Positions 2,458 to 6,621 of a stretch of 8,447 nucleotides of DNA are shown here, piece after piece. A model generated the notes under the pieces. The model saw only the letters and a list, made by a program, of their open reading frames with translations, did not search any database and was not told the DNA's origin. Each line of letters starts with the position of its first letter. Position 1 is the stretch's first letter. Location of the stretch: positions 1 through 8,447 of IMG/VR virus record IMGVR_UViG_2734482772_000013. One strand, 5' to 3'. The translations under genes were made by a program, and so were the position numbers. This DNA comes from a virus (lineage: Duplodnaviria > Heunggongvirae > Uroviricota > Caudoviricetes).

Positions 2458-2688
2458 TTAATGGAGTTTGTTTTGCTGCTGGATGAGCTGCTGAAGCTCG
2501 CGCAGATCATCCGCCAGATAGCTAAATACTGCGGCGGAGTAGGCGTTTGACAGCACGTGGCTGTGCTCATGTGACATGTTGATGAACATGATACGAGCGA
2601 CGCGTGATGCGCGGTAAAGTCTGCGGTTGATTTCAGTCTGGATGTGACGACGCTCCGCGATAGCGCGGTGCTGTTTGCGGTTTGCCAT
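2458..2688 (-). CDS. Hypothetical small basic protein, 76 aa
   Basis: ORF track; good SD (AAAGAGG) about 9 nt upstream of ATG at 2688; first gene after the non-coding terminator region. Confidence 0.55.
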   Translation of the reverse strand: MANRKQHRAIAERRHIQTEINRRLYRASRVARIMFINMSHEHSHVLSNAYSAAVFSYLADDLRELQQLIQQQNKLH

Positions 2689-2866
2689 GGTGTGGCCTCT
2701 TTGGTTGTAAGTTTTGAAAACTCACCATCCAGAGGTGGAAAACTCGGGGTGGTGAGACGTACAGGGTTTCCACAACCGGCAACCAAAGAACCCGGCCCGA
2801 CCGAAGTCGGCCCCATACGCCCCACCATAATTCGTGTGCGAAAAAGACGTGGCGATACGGTACGCA

Positions 2867-2890
2867 CAAAAAAACCGCTGGCGCGGTTGT
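2867..2890 (-). terminator. Putative rho-independent terminator for minus-strand transcription
   Basis: Read on the minus strand: AACCGC-gcca-GCGGTT stem-loop running directly into a T-run (plus strand shows A-run 2868..2874 then ccgctggcgcgg). Confidence 0.45.
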
Positions 2891-3027
2891 GCGCTTTGGT
2901 TGTCAGCGGGGTGGAAATCCCGGCACCCGTTTTATGAGGTGCAGCGGAAATGTAACCTGACTGATTGCGGCATGGCAAGCGGTTTTTTTGTGAGAACGGC
3001 ATACTAAAAAAAATCCTGATACTGCTC

Positions 3028-3052
3028 CGGCCAGCGATTTTCACTGGCCGGG
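3028..3052 (-). terminator. GC-rich hairpin immediately 3' of the SPFH gene stop; possible terminator or mRNA-stabilising stem-loop
   Basis: CCGGCCAG-cgattttca-CTGGCCGG 8-bp perfect stem starting 6 nt after the stop codon at 3058. On the minus strand a T8 run follows only about 13 nt later (3006..3013 on plus), so it is not a canonical terminator geometry. Confidence 0.4.
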
Positions 3053-3057
3053 TTTAA

Positions 3058-3888
3058 TTACTTCACCGGAACAAACGGAACAGCGGTGTTGCTGGTCATG
3101 TATTGCGGCAGCGTGCCGTTCCATTTGTTGATTGCTTCCAGCTCCATAACGCCGGGATTCTGGCGCAGAGCTTCACCGCGTAAACGAATGGCGTCGGCTT
3201 CAGCCTGGGCTTTTGTGCGAATGGCATCAGCCTGTCCGGCAGCTTCTGCGCGCAACATGTTGGCTTCTGCTTCGCGTTGCTTGACTTCCTGTTCGCGTTG
3301 CAGGGTTTTCTGGTTTGCCGTGACTTTGGCGTTAATGCTGTCGATAACGGTTGGCGGATATTCCGGTTTACCGACATAAGAGAGGCTCATGACCTGAATG
3401 CCGATAGGTGTCATTTCTGACTGAATGTCTTTAAGTGCTGAATCCAGCAGTTCAGACTTGCCACCGTCGATAAACTTATCGGTGGTCATTTTGCTGGCCA
3501 GTCGGTTGAGTGCATCGGCGATCTTCTGGCGCAGGTCAGTGTCGGTAATGTCATCCACGCCTTTGCGGTAGGTCTGAAACACTGTGGTAACTTTGGATGG
3601 ATCAACCTTGTAGGCCACACCGATGTGATAGCCGATGGTTGTGCCGTCACTCATCTGAAAGCTGAACGGCTCATCGTAGGTCTTCATTTGTTTGAAGGTC
3701 GGGAAGATGTAAACCTCGGTATTCCAGCCAGTCCAGTAGCGGCCAACGCCAACCACTTCGCCAACGCCTTTGTCGTCGCCCAGCTTGTTGACTTTGATGC
3801 CCACATTACCTGGCTCAACGCGATCGCAGCCAACCAGCAGGATGGCGGCAAAAAGCGGGAGAATCTGAAAGAGTTTGAATTTCTTCAT
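3058..3888 (-). CDS. SPFH / band-7 (prohibitin-flotillin-HflK/C family) domain lipoprotein, 276 aa
   Basis: N-terminal signal peptide with lipobox (LLVGC); core with the SPFH-like pattern GNVGIKVNKLG...EVYIFPTF; Ala/Glu-rich coiled-coil C-terminus (AEANMLRAEAAGQADAIRTKAQAEADAIRLRGEALRQNP) as in HflC/prohibitin C-terminal regions. Start overlaps the upstream stop (ATGA). Confidence 0.85.
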   Translation of the reverse strand: MKKFKLFQILPLFAAILLVGCDRVEPGNVGIKVNKLGDDKGVGEVVGVGRYWTGWNTEVYIFPTFKQMKTYDEPFSFQMSDGTTIGYHIGVAYKVDPSKVTTVFQTYRKGVDDITDTDLRQKIADALNRLASKMTTDKFIDGGKSELLDSALKDIQSEMTPIGIQVMSLSYVGKPEYPPTVIDSINAKVTANQKTLQREQEVKQREAEANMLRAEAAGQADAIRTKAQAEADAIRLRGEALRQNPGVMELEAINKWNGTLPQYMTSNTAVPFVPVK

Positions 3889-4088
3889 TGTTTGATTTCC
3901 TTGATGTACTTACTGAAAAGGCGAACAACGCCTGCCGGGTACAGCATGGCAATGAAAATGCCCAGCAATACCAGGAAGGAGCTGTCTGATGAAATCATTC
4001 GGGGGAGTAGTCCTGCATACAGAATGAGAGAGACGAGGACGCATACCAGCGCCCACATGTATGCGCGAAACCAGGTCTTTTTGTTCAT
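3885..4088 (-). CDS. Small integral membrane protein, 67 aa, two predicted TM helices; partner of the SPFH lipoprotein
   Basis: Two hydrophobic stretches (WALVCVLVSLILYAGLL and FLVLLGIFIAMLYPAGVV); SD AAGGGA about 8 nt upstream; stop overlaps the SPFH start (ATGA coupling). Confidence 0.65.
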   Translation of the reverse strand: MNKKTWFRAYMWALVCVLVSLILYAGLLPRMISSDSSFLVLLGIFIAMLYPAGVVRLFSKYIKEIKQ

Positions 4089-4099
4089 GCTGCGATCCC

Positions 4100-4396
4100 T
4101 TACTGGTTAAGGAAAAAATCAAAAACGTTATTGATGCGTTGTAATAACTCGCGCTGTATTGCTTCCGGTGTTTCTGATTCACCTGGTGACTCCAGCGTCG
4201 CGCAAAAATCCTTGATTTCATGATGGAGCGTCAGGCGAATGGCAGGGGCCGTGGTTCTGGCGTGCTCCAGCTCATCCAGCAGTGCCAACACCACTGACGG
4301 TTGTAAGCTCACGCGAGATGGTAGTGATTCATGGAGGGGTATTCTTTGCACGGCAGTCGCCAGTTCGCGTAGTTCCTGGTGGTTGATGATGCTCAT
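4100..4396 (-). CDS. Hypothetical acidic protein, 98 aa
   Basis: ORF track; SD AAGGAA about 8 nt upstream; ATGA overlap with the upstream gene's stop. Confidence 0.6.
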   Translation of the reverse strand: MSIINHQELRELATAVQRIPLHESLPSRVSLQPSVVLALLDELEHARTTAPAIRLTLHHEIKDFCATLESPGESETPEAIQRELLQRINNVFDFFLNQ

Positions 4397-4638
4397 GCTC
4401 TGGCTTCCTTCAGTAACTGGTTAAACATATTGGTAAGTGGATTGCCGCACCCGAACGGCATCGGGTTTACCTGGTAAGAGAAGCGACCACCTGTTTTGCG
4501 CTCTTTTCTTATGACTGAACCGCTACGCCAGAGTCGGCGTAACTCCGCATTAATAGCTGTGGTTGGGGTATTCAGTGCTGCGGCGATTTCTCCACCGCTA
4601 CACCCCGGATTGGCGGCGATATAGTCCAGAATGGTCAT
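4393..4638 (-). CDS. Winged-helix DNA-binding protein (putative transcriptional regulator), about 81 aa; alternative start at 4644 (83 aa)
   Basis: Helix-turn-helix then wing pattern (GGEIAAALNTPTTAINAELRRL ... VIRKERKTGGRFSYQV). ATG at 4638 overlaps the upstream stop (ATGA) and has better SD spacing (AGGAG 8 nt upstream) than ATG at 4644. Confidence 0.6.
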   Translation of the reverse strand: MTILDYIAANPGCSGGEIAAALNTPTTAINAELRRLWRSGSVIRKERKTGGRFSYQVNPMPFGCGNPLTNMFNQLLKEARA

Positions 4639-4838
4639 CTGCATGACTCCTGTACCTGTCGGATAAGGTTCACCCGCACCACGTTGGTGGCGCAGAAGTA
4701 AGTGCCGTCAGTGAGGTAGATGTGGTGTGCATCCTTTTCTGAACGGTGTTTGTCGATTGTGGTAATCAGGCGTTCGTCGACTTCGTATTCACGTCCTCTG
4801 GAGGTAAAACGAACGACAGGAAAATGCTTAATTGCCAT
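4635..4838 (-). CDS. Hypothetical protein, 67 aa
   Basis: ORF track; strong SD AAGGAGG just upstream of ATG at 4838; first gene after an 86-nt AT-rich gap. Confidence 0.6.
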   Translation of the reverse strand: MAIKHFPVVRFTSRGREYEVDERLITTIDKHRSEKDAHHIYLTDGTYFCATNVVRVNLIRQVQESCR

Positions 4839-4924
4839 TACGCCTCCTTGGCGTGTGCGAATACCTCCGCGAATGCGGATTGTTTTTACATTTTCTTATT
4901 TAACCTGTGGTTTTATTTGCTCTG

Positions 4925-5038
4925 TTATTCGCCAGTGAAAAAGCGTTCAATCTTTTTTACTGAATGAATAATTCGCATAATCCCAATGGCGCAGGCCACC
5001 GAAATAATCAGAACAAACCATGAGATAAATATACTCAT
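4925..5038 (-). CDS. Small hydrophobic peptide, 37 aa (MSIFISWFVLIISVACAIGIMRIIHSVKKIERFFTGE), single predicted TM helix; absent from the ORF track
   Basis: Hand-translated minus-strand ORF; ATG at 5038..5036 overlaps the TGA of the upstream 80-aa gene (ATGA coupling); ends TAA at 4927..4925. Composition is a hydrophobic helix followed by a basic tail. Confidence 0.45.
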   Translation of the reverse strand: MSIFISWFVLIISVACAIGIMRIIHSVKKIERFFTGE

Positions 5039-5277
5039 GCGATATTCCCCAGCTTATACGGTTCAATGTGTTCCCCGCATTCTGCGGCACAGATCAGCTC
5101 GGAAAGTTCGTTAAGTGCATCCAGATCATCAGCGTAAAAAGCAACGTCATACAAACTCCGGATTGCCCTGGTCAATGAGTCACGGGCTGCACGTTCAGCA
5201 TGAGCGCCTGATGCACTTAAGCGAAAATAAAATCGTTCAAGTGCTTTGTTAATGAGAGTTTTATATTCTTTGCCCAT
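5035..5277 (-). CDS. Hypothetical protein, 80 aa
   Basis: ORF track; SD AAAGGG about 7 nt upstream; 11-nt spacing from the upstream gene. Confidence 0.6.
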   Translation of the reverse strand: MGKEYKTLINKALERFYFRLSASGAHAERAARDSLTRAIRSLYDVAFYADDLDALNELSELICAAECGEHIEPYKLGNIA

Positions 5278-5288
5278 CGCAACGCCCT

Positions 5289-5576
5289 TTAATCTGCTTT
5301 CTGAATTTCAGCTTCTGAATCCATACAAATAATTTCGATATAAGGTTCATCGCCATTAGCCTGGCGTGCCTTTTCAGCTTCACTAATGATTTCTCGTACG
5401 GTCTGGTACGGAAGTTCCACAAGCAGTCGCGTGCCGTTCAGATAAACGTAAGTGGCTTCGTTGACTCCGTTTTTACCCGCCGGAGCCACTCCATCAATAG
5501 CGGATGCGCGTAATAACAGTTCACCGCGAAAATCAATAAAACGGATAAATACACCTTGTGCATGCTCTTTGGTCAT
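5289..5576 (-). CDS. Hypothetical protein, about 95 aa (ORF track gives a 115-aa version from 5636 that would overlap the upstream gene by 50 nt)
   Basis: ATG at 5576 is preceded by AGGTG and lies 10 nt after the upstream stop at 5587; chosen over the longer ORF for operon packing. Confidence 0.55.
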   Translation of the reverse strand: MTKEHAQGVFIRFIDFRGELLLRASAIDGVAPAGKNGVNEATYVYLNGTRLLVELPYQTVREIISEAEKARQANGDEPYIEIICMDSEAEIQKAD

Positions 5577-5586
5577 AAAGCACCTG

Positions 5587-5925
5587 TTATAAATCAGCCT
5601 GTTTAATAAAACTTTGTCCGCGAAGCAGACGATCAACCGTGCGTAGTGCTTCGTATAATGTGAAATCCTGCCCGAACTGATTGTCGCCGCAGCTCAATGC
5701 AAAAATGCGGTTTCCGGTAAACGGATTGCGTGGGCATTTGTGGACCACGATTCCAGCTTTCTCAATCAACCAGGCATGCTCGCCGATTTGTTTTACTGGG
5801 TAGCCATCCGGCGTTGCGTGTGTTTCGCTCAGGCTGTAGCGAGAGCTGCTACGTGATGCGCTGGTAGCGAAACGGTTAGCGTGGCGTTCTGTTCCGGTGC
5901 GAAAATTACGGCGTTGCTTCAGCAT
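5587..5925 (-). CDS. Hypothetical protein, 112 aa
   Basis: ORF track; AGGTG SD about 10 nt upstream; starts 14 nt after the cox-like stop. Confidence 0.6.
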   Translation of the reverse strand: MLKQRRNFRTGTERHANRFATSASRSSSRYSLSETHATPDGYPVKQIGEHAWLIEKAGIVVHKCPRNPFTGNRIFALSCGDNQFGQDFTLYEALRTVDRLLRGQSFIKQADL

Positions 5926-5939
5926 AAAATGACACCTCG

Positions 5940-6218
5940 TTATTTTGTCATCTGCACGTATTTCTCTGCGCTCCTGATTGTTTTCAGGAAAAGAGCGAAG
6001 AGATTTACTGTGCGTCTTGAGTTCTTTTCACCCTGGTTGATGGGAATCGAACCTCTGTCAGCCTGTCTTTTCACTGTGTTAACAGCTTGTTTGGTACGCT
6101 TTGCGTAATCTTTCAGGCTTTCTTCAAGTATTGGTAATCCATGCTCATCGCGGTATGGGTAGAACGCCGCTAAACGCTCAATGTCTTCCTGTTCGTATGT
6201 ATTCAAGACCTCTGCCAT
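5940..6218 (-). CDS. Cox/Apl-like small DNA-binding regulator-excisionase, 92 aa (first gene of the early operon)
   Basis: Position (first gene divergent from the repressor) and size (P2 Cox is about 91 aa); putative HTH segment LKDYAKRTKQAVNTVKRQADRGSIP. Function assigned by synteny and motif, not by a measured alignment. Confidence 0.55.
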   Translation of the reverse strand: MAEVLNTYEQEDIERLAAFYPYRDEHGLPILEESLKDYAKRTKQAVNTVKRQADRGSIPINQGEKNSRRTVNLFALFLKTIRSAEKYVQMTK

Positions 6219-6309
6219 GATGTGATAACCTGTTCTATCTGTGGTTATTTGTTACCGAAAGTCGTCGGTAGACTACTTTTGAGATTAATTTAGTCGTCTG
6301 GAGACCACC
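6219..6309. promoter_or_regulatory. Divergent immunity switch region (expected early and repressor promoters plus operators)
   Basis: 91-bp gap between divergent cox-like and C-like genes; 14-bp direct repeat AGTCGTCgGtAGAC (6260..6273) and AGTCGTCtGgAGAC (6292..6305), 12/14 identical, 32 bp apart. -35/-10 elements could not be assigned confidently. Confidence 0.5.
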
Positions 6310-6621
6310 ATGTCAAGTGGGTATGAAAAAAAACTGAAAGAGATACGGAAGAGTGAAGGGTTAACTCAAGTTGAGTTTGCCGATGTTACCGGGATAAATC
6401 TCGGAACTATAAAGAATTATGAGAGTGGCAAAAGAGAGGTTGGTTTAAGCGTTGTCGATCGCGTAATTAATTCTAAAGATTTCGAAAAGTACACAATGTG
6501 GCTTATGACGGGAAAAACAAATGAGGCTGCAGGGCAGATCAGTCCGTCTCTCTCCCCTGATGGGCCAGAAAACACATCGCCTTCTCAAAAACTCCGCAAA
6601 ACTGGCACACAGCCCGGCTAA
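6310..6621 (+). CDS. Immunity repressor, XRE-family HTH (P2 C-type), 103 aa
   Basis: HTH_XRE pattern (LTQVEFADVTGINLGTIKNYESGKR); size and position immediately upstream of int on the same strand as in P2 (C about 99 aa); GGAGA SD 7 nt upstream. Confidence 0.85.
   Translation: MSSGYEKKLKEIRKSEGLTQVEFADVTGINLGTIKNYESGKREVGLSVVDRVINSKDFEKYTMWLMTGKTNEAAGQISPSLSPDGPENTSPSQKLRKTGTQPG

Follow-up and report, generated by a model that had tools for sequence, protein, structure and literature searches.

The window, i.e., the whole stretch of 8,447 nucleotides that was analysed, is the early, Cox-side lytic operon of a P88-like prophage (Xuanwuvirus, P2-type, Peduoviridae). The 701 bases around the small ORF discussed here are 90-97% identical to those of most Xuanwuvirus/P88-type phages; for the region in phages of this type and in E. 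coli records, the identity amounts to 94-99%. The matches to this region in E. coli comprise 1,368 records, which derive from 1,367 of the 5,426 complete genomes, and the prophage adjoins pheA/tyrA in the closest genome. In that genome and in P88, the integrase and repressor genes are followed by a divergent series of genes that starts with a cox-like gene and continues with DUF4761, an ORF of 92 aa and DUF4754. Then follow a 114-bp gene for a "hypothetical protein," which corresponds to a peptide of 37 aa, an ORF of 67 aa (orf67), a MarR-like gene and, further on, the gene for the replication endonuclease (gene A). The operon occupies the minus strand of the window, and the repressor and integrase genes are located on the plus strand. 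A promoter scan of positions 2600..6400 yielded a candidate for the early promoter at 6316..6287 on the minus strand. The features around the peptide gene are listed in Table 1.

Table 1. Genes and sequence elements around the 37-aa peptide gene, numbered according to the window.
Feature	Position	Strand	Basis or remark
DUF4754 gene, 80 aa	5035..5277	-	Pfam PF15946, 2.8e-54; invariably precedes the peptide gene
Ribosome-binding region of the peptide gene, GGGGAA, 6 nt 5' of ATG	5039..5056	-	Within the end of the DUF4754 CDS
Gene for a small membrane protein of 37 aa (P88 gp07 family)	4925..5038	-	ORF, translation MSIFISWFVLIISVACAIGIMRIIHSVKKIERFFTGE, annotation in relatives
Intergenic gap, 86 nt	4839..4924	-	57% A+T vs. 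49% in the window
Variable part of the gap, first 21 nt past the stop codon	4904..4924	-	Per-column diversity; alignment of 49 distinct gap variants
Conserved A-rich tract TTAAATAAGAAAATGTAAAAACAA (T-rich tail on the plus strand)	4880..4903	-	Gap alignment, diversity profile
Hairpin/palindrome of 5 bp, TCCGCGAATGCGGA; sense strand TCCGC-ATTC-GCGGA	4866..4879	.	Followed by TTGTTTTTAC on the plus strand
Conserved 3' flank GGTATTCGCACACG	4852..4865	-	GGAGG formed with the last three bases of the stem
Second small inverted repeat, ACGCC-AAGGA-GGCGT	4840..4854	-	Folding; holds the strong Shine-Dalgarno sequence of the 67-aa ORF
Next gene, 67 aa, phrog_3459	4635..4838	-	First gene past the empty cargo slot; pN/pS 0.17

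The ATG of the peptide gene (5038..5036) overlaps the TGA of the DUF4754 gene (5037..5035), resulting in the sequence ATGA. In the genomes compared, the peptide gene consistently follows DUF4754 and is joined to it by this stop/start overlap. Both genes are found in the same 14 phage records, and the junction is also kept in diverged lineages: at the sampled loci that encode a 41-aa form of the peptide, the gene is preceded by a DUF4754 or DUF4754-like gene of 80-81 aa and followed by a gap of ~80 nt. The coupling to the upstream gene that the earlier note had deduced from the overlap is supported. The predicted pairing of the ribosome-binding region with the 3' end of the 16S rRNA (-5.5 kcal/mol) falls within the range of most other genes of the operon (-3.2 to -7.2 kcal/mol); the predicted strength is higher for orf67 (-11.4 kcal/mol). 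A search of contigs with DUF4754 recovered two loci, one of them in a Vagococcus assembly that is probably contaminated with E. coli DNA. The DUF4754 protein itself is predicted to be all-helical, and its model had no significant match to a fold in the PDB. A pairing of the GhoS/GhoT type, in which this 80-aa protein would be the antidote to a membrane toxin, was considered and finds no support in this predicted fold.

The conservation of the peptide gene was analysed in several hundred related loci, which were reduced to distinct sequence contexts or alleles. All 49 distinct ungapped alleles are intact. The pN/pS of the peptide frame is 0.27, as compared with 1.41 and 1.19 in the two remaining sense frames and 0.17-0.24 in the neighbouring genes. 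A low pN/pS (0.34) was also obtained for the antisense frame with the same third codon positions, which is expected because of the geometry of the frames. The start codon is ATG in 109 of 110 distinct contexts and GTG in the remaining one. The encoded length is 37 aa in 99 of these contexts, 45 aa in eight and 25 or 30 aa in three, the 45-aa alleles having lost one T in a T5/6 run. In total, approximately 10% of the distinct alleles have an altered tail by frameshifts at the T5/6 run or at an A6 run or by early stops. Such alleles suggest that the tail is partly dispensable or that some records contain sequencing errors in homopolymers; at least one of the shortened alleles stems from a record that is rich in indels. 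The conservation and the substitution pattern place the ORF beyond chance and, as judged from these comparisons of sequences, it truly encodes a protein and is subject to purifying selection. The comparison of synonymous with non-synonymous substitutions among relatives, which the earlier note had put forward as a check, therefore supports its claim that a real gene of 37 codons is located here on the minus strand.

If the ORF were not translated, its conservation would have to result from constraints on the DNA or the RNA or from hitch-hiking with DUF4754. The frameshifted and shortened alleles and the low pN/pS of the antisense frame would fit such a scenario, which nevertheless appears very unlikely: the frame-specific substitution pattern resembles that of the neighbouring genes, none of the 110 contexts has lost the start codon, the one exchange being from ATG to GTG, and ribosome binding is predicted to be about as strong as for the neighbours. 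Moreover, the frame, the hydrophobic core and a motif in the tail are retained at only 51-57% identity. Together, the conservation, the frame-specific substitutions, the kept start codon, the diverged 41-aa forms and the ribosome-binding site lead to the conclusion that this is a real and, presumably, translated small gene.

The peptide is modelled by AlphaFold2, with 28 homologues in the alignment, as one helix comprising residues 2-35 (pLDDT 87.7). The best Kyte-Doolittle window of 19 residues (2.63) covers residues 3-21, which form the transmembrane core, and all charged residues are located beyond residue 21. For the tail, the helical hydrophobic moment amounts to 1.64, as compared with 0.81 +/- 0.40 for shuffled tails. 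Residues W7, A17, and G19 are invariant, and a face of small residues is formed by S13/A15/A17/G19. These properties are in agreement with the description in the earlier note of a single transmembrane helix with a basic C-terminal tail. Most probably, the peptide is a single-pass helix in the inner membrane with an N-terminus of two residues outside and the C-terminus inside, an orientation that is derived from the positive-inside rule. Residues 22-37 would then form a basic amphipathic segment along the surface of the membrane.

When 1.84 billion representative proteins were searched with a profile, only the family of the peptide itself was recovered, which consists of subfamilies of 37 and 41 aa. 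Full-length matches to the 37-aa form in phage records are 89-97% identical (tblastn). The 41-aa relatives share 51-57% identity with a representative 41-aa form; they retain M1, W7, L10, A17, G19, I23, I24, K28, and I30, and most of them also retain the motif IExLFTG in the tail. The named members, recovered among others by a separate homologue search with a natural 45-aa frameshift allele as the query, are from Escherichia or Shigella, with a few from Salmonella and one from a Citrobacter rodentium phage; the family is almost confined to prophages of Escherichia and Shigella. The exact peptide of the window is encoded on at least 1000 public contigs, and relatives are named "Prophage membrane protein." The gene is, thus, already public, annotated as encoding a hypothetical or membrane protein and without a function. 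The earlier note had called it unannotated, which holds for the ORF track that was available to its author; in public records, a close variant is listed as WP_000021656.1 and the gene of P88 as gp07. No meaningful family match was found for the peptide in Pfam (also at E<=10), PHROGs, NCBIfam, PADLOC or the sequences in the PDB. Literature searches with the peptide sequence and with DUF4754 returned nothing, and papers on Xuanwuvirus and P88, as far as their titles and abstracts tell, appear not to address the gene.

The architecture of the peptide had led to the suggestion in the earlier note of a type I toxin or a holin. We take its size, hydrophobic helix and basic C-terminus to resemble those of toxins of the Hok, Ldr and TisB types. 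If the peptide were a type I toxin, an antisense RNA with its end at the hairpin in the adjoining gap would control it. Such a function would be consistent with a small hydrophobic membrane peptide with a single predicted helix (hydropathy 2.63) and with the presence of a terminator-like element nearby on the opposite strand. However, no toxin family was matched in Pfam (E<=10), NCBIfam, PADLOC or PHROGs, and no antitoxin RNA family was detected in the window with Rfam (E<=1). The only nearby promoter-like match (5252..5224) occurs at chance frequency, and no such match was found on the antisense strand in 2600..6400. The gene is coupled via ATGA within a polycistronic, repressor-controlled early operon and, importantly, a plus-strand RNA ending at 4880..4889 would be antisense to the next gene and not to the peptide gene. 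Relatives that carry cargo genes also differ from those that lack them in the DNA from which such an RNA would be transcribed. Furthermore, P88 contains a recognisable hok/gef locus elsewhere (gp52). The type I toxin is, therefore, highly improbable, and the claim to this effect is not supported.

An even smaller chance is given to the peptide being a holin, an antiholin or another membrane protein in the timing of lysis. A single transmembrane helix with a charged C-terminus would suit such a role, but the gene is located in the early operon without an adjoining endolysin gene, and P88 carries its lysis cassette (holin/antiholin gp30, endolysin gp31 and gp32) ~15 kb away in the late region, with gp30-gp31 at 17.9-18.6 kb. 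Also, no lysis or holin family was matched in Pfam or PHROGs and, to our knowledge, 37 aa is below the length of known holins. The position of the lysis cassette in the late region, far from the peptide gene, thus argues against this part of the earlier proposal as well. Most likely, the peptide acts as a modulator of another membrane protein rather than as an autonomous pore-forming toxin or a holin.

Downstream of the peptide gene, the operon is interrupted by a gap, which is indeed A+T-rich (Table 1). Between the cox-like and SPFH genes, no other gap exceeds ~20 nt; it is not the only sizeable one in the operon, as had been stated, since a larger one of ~370 nt is present further down at 2689..3057. 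The variable part directly past the stop codon of the peptide gene is followed by ~50 nt that are more conserved than the third codon positions of the flanking genes. On the sense strand, an A-rich run directly 5' of the hairpin is kept in every diverged lineage, with changes in its exact sequence. The second inverted repeat, near the start of the next gene, is not strictly conserved among relatives. A small ORF within the gap was looked for and discarded: the window offers no more than ATG-TAA there, and relatives have other starts or none; likewise, no conserved start codon follows the GGAGG among the relatives. The promoter scan revealed no internal sense promoter in the gap. With Rfam 15, no covariance model matched in 4839..5038, and the only matches in the window were C4 and isrK, at 2745..2942. 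The energies of duplexes of these C4-like and IsrK-like RNAs with the gap did not exceed those obtained with shuffled sequence.

The distance between the stop codon of DUF4754 and the next shared gene falls into classes: it is ~197 nt in 46 of 86 loci, and 463, 636-648 or 953 nt in the other 40. The longer distances are due to one or two extra genes, and all inserts in relatives begin directly past GGTATTCGCACACG. The inserted accessory proteins belong to the families phrog_9338, phrog_21900, and phrog_16975. Together, the distance classes and the position of the inserts indicate that the gap is a boundary between modules and that the cargo slot is empty in the window. The gap can thus be described, from the alignments, as the conserved 3' boundary of a module of DUF4754 and the peptide gene, consisting of the A-rich tract, the 5-bp hairpin, GG and then the slot. 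A junction between ancestral modules was one of two options offered in the earlier note for this gap, and the extra genes just past the hairpin element bear it out.

The other option concerned the hairpin, which was described as a terminator-like element and the possible end of an antisense transcript. The hairpin is present, has a T-rich tail on the plus strand and is conserved. As a pattern match, however, it is not above chance: two terminator-like matches were found in 4300..5500, where 1.1 +/- 1.1 are expected. The folding energy is -7.7 kcal/mol on the plus strand and -8.2 kcal/mol on the minus strand. With a stem of 5 bp, including four G-C pairs, followed by TTGTTTTTAC, the plus-strand element represents the minimum of the criteria of the terminator scan. 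A stem of 5 bp would also be a weak barrier to exonucleases, which counts against a stabilising role in RNA.

That the hairpin is not random follows from its conservation in 109 of 116 distinct contexts, diverged lineages included. The stem TCCGC/GCGGA is near-invariant even in lineages in which the remainder of the gap is no longer recognisable, and the loop of 4 nt occurs in nine forms. The innermost pair of the stem shows a compensatory exchange of C-G to U-A in 4 of 21 distinct rows, three pairs have G·U variants and one never varies; otherwise, the sequence is invariant. Three independent changes in a single arm result in G·U pairs in the sense RNA and in C·A mismatches in the antisense RNA. 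In the alignment, 98.1% of the cells are paired on the sense strand and 95.2% on the antisense strand; the preference for one strand consists of just these three events, and an agreement of all three would arise by chance in one out of eight cases. Since the stem is invariant in sequence rather than covarying, it fits a sequence-specific recognition site in DNA or RNA as well as a structural hairpin. The palindrome is present in one copy in the window and in one copy in the whole P88 genome of 35.8 kb, even when one mismatch is allowed. In one lineage (L292-L301), the hairpin is missing and its position is taken by a further small hydrophobic ORF. When viral contigs were scanned with a loose DNA pattern of the diverged type of hairpin, almost all matches were due to chance, and three were true.

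Several functions of this hairpin can be envisaged. Most likely, it acts in the early mRNA of the sense strand, for example, as an intercistronic stem-loop in processing or stabilisation; this is the weakest part of the explanation that we propose. Next in rank, at about the same level, are a terminator of antisense transcription and a site in the DNA, and a hairpin without any function ranks last.

As a weak intrinsic terminator on the plus strand, the hairpin would end transcripts that are antisense to the operon, such as those from accessory genes in reverse orientation in the variable region, and thereby keep them from extending through the early genes into the repressor and integrase genes, which are likewise on the plus strand. 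The pattern of a hairpin plus a T-run is indeed matched on that strand, the T-rich stretch past the stem is kept across diverged lineages, and some relatives carry a reverse-oriented gene of 160-161 aa two genes downstream. Nevertheless, we consider this function unlikely. No promoter-like site was found on the plus strand in 2600..6400, and no plus-strand gene is located upstream within 2.2 kb. The window and P88 do not have a reverse gene between the peptide and SPFH genes and, where such a gene is present, it ends ~450 nt from the hairpin. The stem is short and the T-run is interrupted, being reduced to TGTTTC in one lineage. Moreover, 10 of the 14 terminator-like matches in 2600..6400 fall on the same T-rich plus strand, and the three single-arm changes are mismatches precisely on this strand. 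Thus, although the T-run is kept, the absence of a plus-strand promoter and the C·A mismatches lean against the end of an antisense transcript at this position.

Rather improbable, too, is that the 14-bp sequence TCCGC-N4-GCGGA serves as a binding site in the DNA for a dimeric protein, such as the MarR-like, Cox-like or DUF4754 protein or a host factor, at the boundary of the module. A near-invariant half-site with a spacer of 4 nt in nine variants is what such a site might look like, and it persists in lineages with peptides that are 51-57% identical to the 41-aa representative; besides, the only double change, from C-G to T-A, keeps the symmetry. A repeated operator is not apparent, however, given the single copy in the window and in the P88 genome, the flanks are asymmetric, and three natural variants lose the symmetry but keep the pairing in RNA. 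Of the candidate proteins, only DUF4754 and DUF4761 are constant across the lineages that keep the hairpin, and the model of DUF4754 has no recognisable DNA-binding fold.

Overall, the best explanation, which we consider probable, is that of a real, coupled gene for a membrane-modulating peptide with a hairpin at the boundary of the module that acts in the sense mRNA. The peptide would be translated by coupling to DUF4754 and would be made only when the early promoter fires, i.e., upon infection or induction. It would insert into the inner membrane as a single-pass helix and, as its architecture alone suggests, may function there as a small membrane-embedded modulator that binds a membrane protein of the host or the phage by helix-to-helix contacts. 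The hairpin at the module boundary may, for example, serve in the processing or stabilisation of the early mRNA.

A more far-reaching proposal, to which we assign only a small likelihood as a whole, combines DUF4754, the peptide and the hairpin into one conserved early module of three parts in the P2-type phages of Escherichia. In that case, the peptide would be an effector in host takeover that binds and inhibits one particular protein of the inner membrane, e.g., a protease, a transporter or a protein of cell division, and slippage at the T5/6 and A6 runs could switch its C-terminal tail. The hairpin with its invariant stem would be a sequence-specific recognition site in RNA or DNA and, at the same time, mark the site at which accessory genes come and go. 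Should the peptide have a defined target in the host, it would join the short list of phage micro-proteins with known mechanisms, and the region is present in roughly a quarter of the complete E. coli genomes. The hairpin at the gene-swap boundary could help to explain the way in which P2-type prophages exchange or express their accessory genes. At present, the locus contains an ordinary annotated gene and a small conserved hairpin, which leaves the view of these phages unchanged. The only mildly unexpected feature is the sequence-invariant hairpin of 5 bp that borders a variable gene slot.

How the locus compares with known systems differs between its parts. P88 gp07, a "membrane protein" (YP_009113050.1), the PGAP-annotated RefSeq protein WP_000021656.1, which is a close variant, and the UniRef entries named "Prophage membrane protein" represent the same gene. 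P88 gp07 is 97% identical to the peptide (tblastn) and has the same ATGA position after DUF4754 and the same gap with the hairpin. The P88 and RefSeq relatives differ from the peptide of the window in one residue, i.e., F8 in the window vs. L8 in most relatives. None of these entries states a function.

Type I toxins, such as Hok/Gef, Ldr, TisB, Ibs, and ShoB, are short peptides with a single hydrophobic helix and a charged end. In contrast to these toxins, neither a separate promoter or leader nor an antisense RNA nor a family match was found for the peptide gene, and it is translationally coupled to another gene in an early phage operon. Other small membrane peptides act on a partner: MgrB, AcrZ, MgtS, and SidA of Caulobacter are peptides of 30-50 residues whose helix binds and modulates a larger membrane protein. 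CIII of phage lambda is encoded in the early operon and acts on a membrane protease, but it is amphipathic and not transmembrane. The searches for homologues and families, of PDB sequences and with profiles detected no sequence relationship between the peptide and these small membrane modulators or CIII; the likeness would, therefore, extend only to the probable mode of action.

The hairpin shares with rho-independent terminators a G+C-rich stem followed by a T-rich run on the plus strand. It differs from them in its short stem, in the interrupted T-run and in the absence of an upstream promoter or gene on that strand, and its natural variants are mismatched there. Intercistronic stem-loops, such as the malE-malF REP sequence and those in the pap and puf operons, set the differential stability of segments of an mRNA. 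As compared with these stem-loops, the stem at this locus is short, with 5 bp, invariant in sequence rather than covarying, and present in a single copy. Like them, however, it is located between cistrons, beside an A/U-rich tract that would be single-stranded, and on the strand that is transcribed.

The peptide gene lies at a mosaic junction: between it and the DUF4754 gene, a breakpoint is apparent when two related loci, L052 and L005, are compared with the window. The identity of L052 to the window is 98.4% in DUF4754 and 87.7% in the peptide gene, and the corresponding values for L005 are 78.2% and 90.4%. The peptide gene itself contains runs of five T and six A residues (see table), in which one-base changes recur across several genetic backgrounds. 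These changes result in peptide alleles of 45, 50, and 51 amino acids with an altered tail, which could have arisen naturally by slippage or be artifacts of sequencing. In the alleles of the peptide gene with CGT, the heptamer T TTT TTC is present.

Immediately 3' of the hairpin element is a variable cargo slot. It is empty in the window; of 86 relatives, 40 have one or two genes in it. These genes, whose function is unknown, belong to the families phrog_9338 (122-138 aa), phrog_21900 (87 aa), and phrog_16975. One lineage, represented by the IMG/VR contigs L292-L301, lacks a hairpin directly 3' of its 41-aa peptide gene; a second small hydrophobic ORF (MKNVKAILTIATVWVIFQV...) starts there ~14 nt past the stop codon of the peptide gene. 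In general, terminator-like patterns on the plus strand of window 2600..6400 need to be read with caution. Of 14 matches in this region, 10 are on that strand, i.e., antisense to the operon, and this excess probably arises because the coding strand is A-rich. In one related locus, L004 (NZ_JBQPOM010000071.1), the E. coli prophage region, 98% identical at the protein level, is on a contig labeled Vagococcus sp. WN89Y; that assembly is probably contaminated or mislabeled.

The 67-aa gene of family phrog_3459 has a very strong Shine-Dalgarno sequence (-11.4 kcal/mol for pairing with the 3' end of 16S rRNA). The inverted repeat that surrounds it, whose conservation is not strict, may damp translation of this gene.

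Features and their locations
Feature	Location	Detail
Homopolymer runs within peptide gene	window 4935..4957	T5 run CGCTTTTTC; A6 run GTAAAAAAG
Cargo slot	L003 1970..2380; also L065, L005, L037, others	equivalent to window ~4839..4851
Inverted repeat	window 4840..4854(-)	ACGCC-AAGGA-GGCGT
phrog_1130/SPFH pair	window 3058..4088(-)	67 aa and 276 aa
isrK	window 2868..2942(-)	64.3 bits
C4 antisense RNA	window 2745..2832(-)	80.5 bits
hok/gef-family gene	P88 (L370) 34928..35068	'MokW-like host killing'

A genuine type I toxin locus is present in the same phage type as the window: phage P88 carries a hok/gef-family gene near its right end, beyond the window.

The Rfam families C4 antisense RNA and isrK both match strongly within the ~370-nt gap that separates the SPFH gene from that of the 'derepression protein'. 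This suggests that, in this P2-type prophage, an antirepressor is under P1-type, immI-like RNA control. The phrog_1130 gene, which encodes a membrane protein of 67 aa, overlaps the SPFH/Band 7 gene at the start of the latter, whose product is a lipoprotein according to the P88 annotation. The pair, which is missing from some relatives, resembles the NfeD-SPFH pairs.
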